Positions 1 to 399 of a stretch of DNA of 6,046 nt are shown piece after piece. Each line of letters opens with the position of its first letter. The stretch's first letter is position 1. The translations under genes were made by a program, and so were the position numbers. Source of the stretch: a virus; IMG/VR virus record IMGVR_UViG_3300029219_000085, positions 1-6,046 of that record. One strand, 5' to 3'. Under the pieces are notes generated by a model, which saw only the letters and a list, made by a program, of their open reading frames with translations, searched no databases and was not told the origin of the DNA.

Positions 1-58
1 ATTTAATTTTACTGATTAAGAGCGTCAATCCACTCTTATCTAAATATTCAATAGCTAT
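1..58 (-). CDS. 5' end of a phage structural gene (fibre-like N-terminus) that runs past the window start; putative AUA initiation codon
   Basis: On the minus strand, SD AGGAGG (71..66) is followed by 7 nt and then ATA (58..56). The frame then stays open to the window edge: ATA GCT ATT GAA TAT TTA GAT AAG AGT GGA TTG ACG CTC TTA ATC AGT AAA ATT AAA = (I/M)AIEYLDKSGLTLLISKIK. This frame opens after TAG 79..77. Its first canonical start is TTG 28..26, which has no usable SD spacing. The motif LDxxGLxxLxxKIK resembles N-termini of phage fibre or structural proteins, from memory only. Confidence 0.45.
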   Translation of the reverse strand, partial: MAIEYLDKSGLTLLISKIK

Positions 59-69
59 TCTTTTTCCTC

Positions 70-399
70 CTATAGACTATTCCATAATTCATCTAGTTCG
101 GTTGTTGATACAGATGTTACAGAACCTTCTGCCATAGCTCCAATATCTTCCGGAGTATATACCGGTCTTGTTTCTGCTTTAGCCCATGTTGGAACTGTTG
201 GGTCTATTTCTTCAACCTCTCCAATGATTTCATTACCATTTAATTTAGGCTTGTTCTTTAGCTTGTTGTAATCACTTGTACCTTCAACAAACTTCTCATC
301 TAAGCCTAAAGTTAATGTTTCTTTATCTTCATTGATTTCAATTTGAAGCTTGTCTGATTCATCTTGTATATTCATTTGAATATCTTGCATTAGAATCAT
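70..399 (-). CDS. hypothetical phage structural protein with fibre-type motifs
   Basis: 109-aa ORF with ATG at 399..397, preceded by AAGGAAGTG and a 7-nt spacer. It overlaps the upstream gene by 4 nt. The motifs DYNKLKNKPKLNGNEIIG and PTWAKAETRPVYTPEDIGA are recalled from tail or head fibre proteins of Firmicutes phages. There is no catalytic signature. Confidence 0.7.
   Translation of the reverse strand: MILMQDIQMNIQDESDKLQIEINEDKETLTLGLDEKFVEGTSDYNKLKNKPKLNGNEIIGEVEEIDPTVPTWAKAETRPVYTPEDIGAMAEGSVTSVSTTELDELWNSL

Follow-up and report, generated by a model that had tools for sequence, protein, structure and literature searches.

ATA start codons in a gut phage lineage and a putative phage-encoded initiator tRNA with a UAU anticodon

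In stop-codon-recoded phages, phage-encoded suppressor tRNAs change how a codon is read in phage genes. Here we describe a candidate counterpart at the start codon, found in a 6,046-nucleotide (nt) stretch of virus DNA (positions 1 to 6,046 of IMG/VR record IMGVR_UViG_3300029219_000085, hereafter the window) that belongs to a temperate-type, siphovirus-like gut phage. A gene at the edge of the window, fib202, apparently opens at ATA, and the same strand carries a tRNA gene with a UAU anticodon in an initiator-tRNA body. The likeness to the stop-codon-recoded phages lies in a phage tRNA that alters codon reading and could tie translation to phage tRNA expression. The difference is that the meaning of a start codon would change here rather than that of a stop, with internal ATA codons still standing at isoleucine, leucine or valine positions.

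An AUA start behind a strong Shine-Dalgarno (SD) sequence is in itself a known kind of site. The closest described cases are infC, ccpN and citZ of Staphylococcus aureus (PMC13009471), in which AUA likewise stands at the true N-terminus behind a strong, well-spaced SD in a Gram-positive background of low GC content, and citZ resembles the phage cases in being lineage-specific as well. However, the S. aureus set comprises four genomic cases (three AUA and one AUU) that use the host initiator and attenuate regulators, whereas the phage lineage has about ten ATA families, the major capsid protein included, and encodes a matching UAU initiator-type tRNA beside them. Changing the anticodon of an initiator tRNA is known to allow initiation at the corresponding codon. 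Proof of principle for a matched initiator comes from phiX174, whose capsid genes work with TAG starts when given an amber initiator tRNA (bioRxiv 10.1101/2024.07.29.605542). That system also places essential phage genes on a non-AUG start with an anticodon-matched initiator tRNA, but it is synthetic, uses UAG and has its tRNA in the host, whereas the present one would be natural, use AUA and have a phage-borne tRNA. The tRNA-Ile (CAU/UAU) of Latilactobacillus curvatus prophages (PMC10688831) resembles ours in being prophage-borne, in its AUA-reading anticodon and in the ARAGORN label tRNA-Ile. Unlike an elongator tRNA-Ile, the phage tRNA(UAU) has an initiator-like body (1:72 mismatch, A11:U24 and U37) and co-occurs with ATA starts. 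Searching the published literature, we found no natural phage initiator tRNA with a non-CAU anticodon, which does not prove that none has been described, and no natural non-CAU initiator-type tRNA coupled to genome-wide use of a matching start codon. We are not aware of any earlier natural example of an initiator tRNA with a non-CAU anticodon in a genome shifted to matching start codons. Given the observations below, we assign a probability of about 0.68 to the reading that a phage-encoded initiator tRNA(UAU) initiates translation at AUA.

The fib202 gene enters the window at its low-numbered end, where the following features are relevant.

71..66, minus strand: SD of fib202, AGGAGG, with a 7-nt spacer, overlapping the stop TAG 72..70 of the upstream open reading frame (ORF) 70..399
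58..56, minus strand: ATA start codon of fib202, ATG in many relatives
1..55, minus strand: codons 2-19 of fib202, AIEYLDKSGLTLLISKIK..., the gene running past the window edge
28..26, minus strand: TTG picked by gene callers (giving 192 amino acids, aa), codon 11, rejected as a start and taken as an internal leucine codon

Read on the minus strand, the upstream ORF ends in AAT AGT CTA TAG (72..70), its stop overlapping AGGAGG 71..66, and the spacer AAAAAGA (65..59) leads to ATA 58..56, which is followed by GCT ATT GAA TAT TTA GAT AAG AGT GGA TTG (28..26) ACG CTC TTA ATC AGT AAA ATT AAA T. From TAG 79..77 onward this frame has no stop down to base 1, the remaining two being interrupted by several stops, and its first canonical codon is TTG 28..26, with no ATG, GTG or TTG before it. 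The initial annotation of the window had described this arrangement, AGGAGG plus 7 nt plus ATA-GCT without a canonical start ahead of TTG 28, and its description was correct. It had also held that TTG 28..26 directly abuts GAGTGGA and so has no spacer. The SD/anti-SD duplex energy upstream of TTG 28 is −3.5 kcal/mol, close to the background mean of −3.6, versus −10.2 kcal/mol upstream of ATA 58 (top 2% of all positions). Its statement that the strongest SD nearby points at ATA holds for the strength of that SD but not for its rank, as the SD of ORF 70..399 itself reaches −11.1. The window has five copies of AGGAGG, all of them on the coding strand, versus 1.46 expected.

Relatives place the N-terminus of fib202 at the ATA. 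Many public contigs encode the 109-aa protein of the upstream ORF and extend the fib202 frame to an ORF of 202 codons, which is intact in 84 related loci; the frame is therefore coding and corresponds to a real gene. More than 100 proteins with a length of exactly 202 aa and the N-terminus MAIEYLDKSGL were retrieved by a protein search, and their contigs carry ATG exactly at the window's ATA codon with the flanking 50 nt identical. More distant homologues begin M-x(1-5)-(Y/F)LDxxGL and none begins at the equivalent of TTG 28, which falls within the conserved YLDxxGL N-terminal motif. Residues 1-200 of fib202 align to positions 1-195 of the 197 in profile phrog_24103. The earlier proposal that (M)AIEYLDKSGLTLLISKIK is a genuine protein N-terminus thus agrees with the ATG orthologues, the homologue N-termini and the profile, and the objection it had anticipated, that homologues might start at the TTG 28 residue, falls away.

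Public gene callers nevertheless start fib202 of ATA contigs at TTG 28. In locus L002 the called start is a TTG three codons further on, because TTG 28 is there CTA, a synonymous leucine codon; the same replacement is found in L024, L028, L037, L039 and others, including many ATA alleles. By comparison, the GGAGG core of the SD is invariant in 58 IMG/VR relatives. In sum, ATA 58..56 occupies the homologues' initiator-methionine position behind a strong and well-spaced SD with no better canonical start nearby, as expected of a near-cognate start, and these sequence comparisons support initiation of fib202 at ATA 58..56 rather than at TTG 28. A −1 frameshift or stop read-through from ORF 70..399 into fib202 was considered and rejected, as the 7-nt interval lacks a slippery site and ATG alleles denote an independent start. 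In L052 the stop of the 109-aa ORF has changed from TAG to CAG, and the ORF ends five codons on, at the TAG that arises where the ATA of the fib202 start meets the G that follows it.

The product of fib202 is a short fibre-like virion protein that shares modules with very long phage fibre proteins. Its structure prediction was unusable (predicted local distance difference test score of 36), a sequence search of the PDB with fib202 gave nothing significant, and megablast of the window's first 1.5 kb against INPHARED phages gave no match.

The fib202 start codon is a G/A polymorphism at window position 56. An exact-context scan of IMG/VR gave 13 ATA and 15 ATG copies, metagenome contigs gave 9 and 7, and a looser anchor scan of IMG/VR gave 16 and 42 (58 contigs); no codon other than ATG or ATA was found at this site in the IMG/VR and metagenome scans. 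The sequence variation of the ATA allele shows an intact gene that purifying selection maintains. Each of the 32 complete ATA copies is an unbroken ORF of 202 codons, and the ratio of nonsynonymous to synonymous divergence (dN/dS) is 0.115 within the ATA class and within the ATG class alike. Inside ATA-only clades the corresponding polymorphism ratio (pN/pS) is 0.055, and private, so recent, mutations of ATA alleles number 15 synonymous to 14 nonsynonymous, versus a neutral ratio of 1:3.45 (p = 5e-4). The ATA allele has almost no linkage disequilibrium (LD) with the gene body; with the 1 kb of sequence upstream its LD is strong (r2 up to 0.79). At least five very divergent module types occur in that upstream region, and one of them holds 22 of 22 ATA alleles. 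A single recent ATA clade was rejected, since diversity among ATA alleles (pS 0.25) equals overall diversity and the gene tree has about six state changes. The only disrupted copy among about 90 is the ATG-allele fib202 of L120 (IMGVR_UViG_3300000278_000048), with a premature stop at codon 11.

Two other consequences of the polymorphism were considered and set aside. A perfect 10-bp palindrome, AATAGCTATT, arises in the ATA allele at window positions 50-59, where the ATG allele reads AATGGCTATT; as a functional motif it was rejected, being present in a single copy in the window with no recurring motif found. A difference in mRNA structure between the alleles was rejected as well, their folds being similar and weak (−15.4 vs −16.6 kcal/mol).

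The second element of the proposed system is the tRNA gene.

5084..5009, minus strand: gene for a tRNA that combines a UAU anticodon with the body of an initiator tRNA (ARAGORN 'tRNA-Ile (tat)'; Rfam tRNA, 49.1 bits)

This gene (AGCAGGATAGAGCAGTAGTAGCTCGTCGGTCTTATTAGCCGAAGGTCGAATGGTGCAAATCCTTCTCCTGCAACCA) is on the coding strand, some 410 nt ahead of the start of the small terminase gene. It has A1xA72, marked as a non-pair in the Rfam alignment, followed by G2:C71, C3:G70, A73, an encoded CCA and A11:U24, and its anticodon arm in the window consists of G29:C41, G30:C40 and U31.G39 with the loop CUUAUUA. Searched against 5,426 E. coli genomes, it matched only tRNA-Met genes, at a median of 4 places per genome and with 77.9% identity over 75 nt. 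The match examined was a three-gene tRNA-Met cluster between mltA and amiC, which we take to be the initiator tRNAfMet cluster metZWV. By that identification, the closest sequence relatives of tRNA(UAU) in the E. coli genomes are initiator tRNA genes. The gene is present in 11 of the 11 compared loci that cover the region, and ARAGORN calls it as tRNA-Ile in only 4 of the 12 compared loci carrying it (the window included). Across 39 loci there are 10 variants, all with fully paired stems, with compensatory double changes at three anticodon-stem pairs and an invariant anticodon loop.

Position 1:72 is A.A in 10 of 10 variants and C1.A72 in E. coli, so that neither has the Watson-Crick pair that initiators avoid. 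G2:C71, C3:G70 and A73 together with A11:U24 are formylation and initiator determinants, and all are invariant in the phage variants, as in E. coli metZWV. Further likenesses to E. coli tRNAfMet (metZWV/metY) are the same D-arm, G29:C41, G30:C40 and, in some phage variants, a TTCAAAT T-loop. The anticodon arms differ at positions 31, 34, 37 and 39: the phage tRNA has UAU rather than the initiator's CAU, U37 rather than A, and U.G rather than G:C at 31:39. It also has A1 rather than C and is phage-encoded. Because the anticodon is UAU and the loop CUUAUUA is invariant, we regard tRNA(UAU) as initiator-derived and not as a canonical tRNAfMet. Elongator tRNAs have a paired 1:72, a pyrimidine 11 with a purine 24, and a purine at 37 that carries N6-threonylcarbamoyladenosine (t6A). 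An elongator tRNA-Ile would share the UAU anticodon for AUA but not the A.A at 1:72, A11:U24 or U37. Most variants have the D-loop AGUAGUA without the usual GG, the T-loop UGCAAAU (with G at 55) and a bulged base in the T-stem, while a rare L052-type tRNA (L052:8608-8682) has canonical loops, AGUGGUG and UUCAAUU; the differences look like coordinated changes at the tRNA elbow.

The fib202 start has counterparts elsewhere in the lineage, where about 10 gene families have ATA at the position of their homologues' N-terminal methionine: the small terminase, portal, head protein, fib202, fib303 (rarely), major capsid protein, g168 (a protein of 168 aa), g195 (195 aa), tape measure protein and RusA. 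Three of them lie in the window in addition to fib202.

2887..2885, minus strand: ATA start of the portal gene (SD AGGAGG at 2899..2894, 6-nt spacer TAAGAA; the gene ends at 1484 and has 467 codons)
4595..4593, minus strand: ATA start of the small-terminase-like gene (SD GAAAGGGGA at 4611..4603; the gene ends at 4209)
1487..1485, minus strand: ATA start of the head-protein gene (overlapping the portal stop TAG 1486..1484; 269 codons in relatives)

The ORF listing and public gene calls start all three too far downstream, at TTG 2794 (portal), TTG 4535 (small terminase) and ATG 1432 (head protein). Read backwards from TTG 2794, the portal ORF meets no canonical start and has no stop until that of the terminase; its start is ATA in 27 of 27 relatives, and the supposed 97-nt intergenic stretch before the TTG varies mainly at third codon positions. 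Residues 22-462 of the portal align to positions 27-482 of phrog_533, beginning ten residues upstream of the TTG, and A118-type portals of 450-468 aa align across its N-terminal extension. For the small terminase, no canonical start exists between TAG 4613..4611 and TTG 4535, a conserved GRP motif lies upstream of that TTG, and a second in-frame ATA at 4598..4596 is an alternative start; ATA starts were found in two small-terminase types. The head protein has ATA in 32 of 32 loci, its residues 1-224 aligning to 6-248 of phrog_1220 and residues 1-213 to 1-220 of phrog_18805. Outside the window, the major capsid gene has AAGGAGG followed after 9 nt by ATA in all 22 of 22 loci, with residues 1-288 of its product aligning to 1-294 of the 297 positions of phrog_422 (E 2e-66), and the tape measure protein starts at ATA with its first canonical ATG only at codon 141. 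A second fibre gene, fib303 (about 303 aa), has ATA in 2 copies versus ATG in 80; the two ATA copies are from L050 and L134, and both of these phages also have ATA at fib202 and at the major capsid gene.

To survey starts without reference to homologues, SD-supported ORF openings were collected, defined by a duplex free energy (dG) no higher than −8.5 kcal/mol, an ORF length of 60 codons or more, the opening of the frame within 8 codons upstream and the lack of a canonical start nearby. Among unique contexts, ATA was the second commonest opening (ATG 238, ATA 41, TTG 6 and GTG 4). Internal ATA codons align with isoleucine, leucine or valine in portal homologues, so the elongation code is standard and a reassignment of AUA to methionine was rejected. 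There was likewise no sign of stop-codon recoding, as ORFs are intact under code 11 and only start-codon usage is unusual.

The distribution of the tRNA was compared with that of ATA starts. All 16 fib202 ATA contigs from IMG/VR carry the tRNA on the same contig (none without), compared with 3 of the ATG contigs, the other 39 having no tRNA found (Fisher p 1.2e-11, not corrected for relatedness). The three ATG contigs with the tRNA are exactly those with an ATA-type portal and head module. Similarly, SD-supported openings number 279 ATG and 108 ATA in tRNA-bearing loci versus 276 ATG and 5 ATA in tRNA-lacking loci, an ATA:ATG ratio about 20-fold higher on tRNA-bearing contigs. The five ATA openings without a tRNA come from L044, which is a partial contig, from L036, which is unexplained, and from one weak call. 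In this comparison fib202 appears as the 'youngest' ATA case, still polymorphic for ATG and ATA in tRNA-bearing phages and ATG in 39 of 39 relatives in which no tRNA was found.

Under the reading that we favor, tRNA(UAU) would be derived from bacterial tRNAfMet and would keep the features needed for formylation and P-site entry. Its anticodon would pair perfectly with AUA, the strong SD would position the ribosome, and initiation at AUA by the phage tRNA would result; the ATA of fib202 and the other ATA starts would all be decoded by this same initiator. If it is charged, tRNA(UAU) seems more likely to be charged with isoleucine than with methionine. Translation from AUA starts would then depend on the phage's own initiator, with proteins possibly starting with formyl-isoleucine, and such a private initiation channel might serve timing, prophage silencing or escape from host attacks on tRNAfMet. 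The broader proposition, a natural, virus-encoded reassignment of the initiation codon in which a CAU initiator became UAU and capsid, portal, terminase and tail genes moved onto AUA starts, is one that we lean towards accepting.

Several points weigh against initiation by tRNA(UAU). Its function, including aminoacylation, formylation and initiation at AUA, is one that we infer from sequence alone, and the charging enzyme is in doubt, as methionyl-tRNA synthetase normally needs C34 and isoleucyl-tRNA synthetase normally uses t6A37. The initiator run of three G:C pairs (29:41, 30:40 and 31:39) is incomplete, being G:C, G:C, U.G in the window tRNA and A:U, G:C, U.G in the commonest variant, with only 30:40 invariant. 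Also atypical are U37, found in all variants, and the unusual D- and T-loops of the commonest type. Furthermore, L036 (IMGVR_UViG_3300029219_000010) has ATA at its major capsid and g168 starts (7783 and 10312) beside an ATG fib202, and three different patterns found no tRNA(UAU) on it; looser tRNA scans added only unrelated tRNAs, none of them on L036. Since the contigs with the tRNA belong to a single lineage, common descent is moreover a partial confounder of the co-occurrence. However, the body of fib202 recombines freely between backgrounds (low LD) while ATA never occurs there without the tRNA, which argues for selection and not only shared descent.

The alternative with the most in its favor is ordinary near-cognate initiation, in which the host fMet-tRNA(CAU) reads AUA inefficiently with the aid of a strong SD and coupling to the upstream ORF, ATA acts as an attenuator, and the phage tRNA(UAU) is an elongator for rare AUA codons. 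In S. aureus the host initiator suffices for AUA with an extended SD to retain some 10-30% of AUG activity (PMC13009471), so that such a start does not strictly need a tRNA of its own; in E. coli the figure is 1-2% (bioRxiv 063800). Natural single-nucleotide changes of ATG to ATA at starts are known to lower expression, for example in rpoS (PMC12864459). Prophage tRNA-Ile genes (CAU/UAU) are usually read as AUA codon supply (PMC10688831), a role that the phage tRNA may have because ATA makes up 21% of internal isoleucine codons in the window. Yet on this account the major capsid, portal and tape measure genes would all be attenuated, a poor fit with the capsid's high copy number. It must also accommodate a tRNA whose conserved 1:72 mismatch, A11:U24 and U37 are initiator or at least non-elongator features, whose only E. 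coli matches are initiator genes, and without which ATA starts are almost absent in related phages. On balance we consider it unlikely.

By comparison, it is highly improbable that fib202 is a dispensable fibre gene whose ATA copies are null or in decay, or that these copies yield an N-terminally truncated protein from TTG 28. Fibre and decoration genes are often accessory and gene callers do choose the 192-aa version, but every complete ATA copy is intact and purifying selection is as strong as in ATG alleles, private mutations included. Moreover, ATA is the only variant seen at the start, never another disabling change, and the TTG has no SD, is CTA in many ATA alleles and would give a product lacking the YLDxxGL motif. 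Least probable of all, to the point of being scarcely credible, is the possibility that the A is an error of sequencing or assembly, or stands for a modified base. Some relatives do carry Pfam matches to QueT and TAGT, families that we take to be linked to DNA-modification pathways (queuosine-precursor transport and DNA hypermodification). However, dozens of assemblies made independently, in different studies and on different platforms, show the ATA, and its LD with the 1-kb upstream haplotype is strong; elsewhere the same context has ATG. The null-allele, truncation and artefact readings are thus effectively excluded.

If initiation by tRNA(UAU) is correct, this would be the first known natural case, a start-codon recoding that forms the initiation counterpart of phage stop-codon recoding. 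In that case, synthetic biology and phage biocontainment would gain an orthogonal initiation pair of natural origin, and studies of IF3 and the P site would gain a test case for the acceptance of a non-AUG codon paired with its cognate anticodon. A practical implication concerns annotation: in an abundant human-gut phage group, the portal (467 aa, but 436 aa in a cluster of 1,406 sequences) and the capsid, tape measure and fibre genes are given wrong starts or cut short by gene callers.

Other features of the window and its relatives complete the description. Relative to L001 and L005, the window's head-protein gene is broken by a 14-nt deletion (TGTTCGTAGATGAT) near 1388: a stop follows its 34 conserved N-terminal codons, and the remainder continues in a different frame (ORF 692..1432). 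The gene may genuinely be a pseudogene or split, or the break may be an artefact of assembly. In the ORF after SSB, also on the minus strand, AGGAGG (5642..5637) is followed by TGGATTTA, ATA (5628..5626), GAA and ATG (5622..5620), and its start is ambiguous because the ATA (8-nt spacer) and the ATG (14-nt spacer) are both conserved in relatives. An uncalled second gene of 81 aa, considered as another odd start, always has ATG. The tRNA gene is flanked by two hairpins.

5102..5126, minus strand: terminator-like hairpin GTGCTCACAATGTGAGCA with a T-run, just upstream of tRNA(UAU) and flagged by a scan
4908..4926, minus strand: terminator-like hairpin with a T-run, downstream of tRNA(UAU)

By inspection only, a TGTAATAAT element after the 5102..5126 hairpin resembles an extended −10. 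The QueT (PF06177) and TAGT (PF20691) matches lie just upstream of the packaging genes (L001:1335-1793, L007:1376-1795 and L004:1-367).

The nearest lead to a host is Erysipelotrichaceae, unconfirmed for the tRNA-bearing lineage. It derives from a portal homologue from Amedibacillus and from L063, an uncultured Holdemanella metagenome-assembled genome (NZ_CAAEDN010000059.1) that holds the only fib202 relative in a named genome, with 87% amino acid identity and an ATG start; no tRNA(UAU) was seen in the stretch of L063 fetched. Lastly, an unrelated phage (L180:6568-6641, IMGVR_UViG_3300049846_002600) carries an initiator-like tRNA with a CAU anticodon, A1xC72 and three G:C pairs, and therefore phage-borne initiator tRNAs exist in other lineages.

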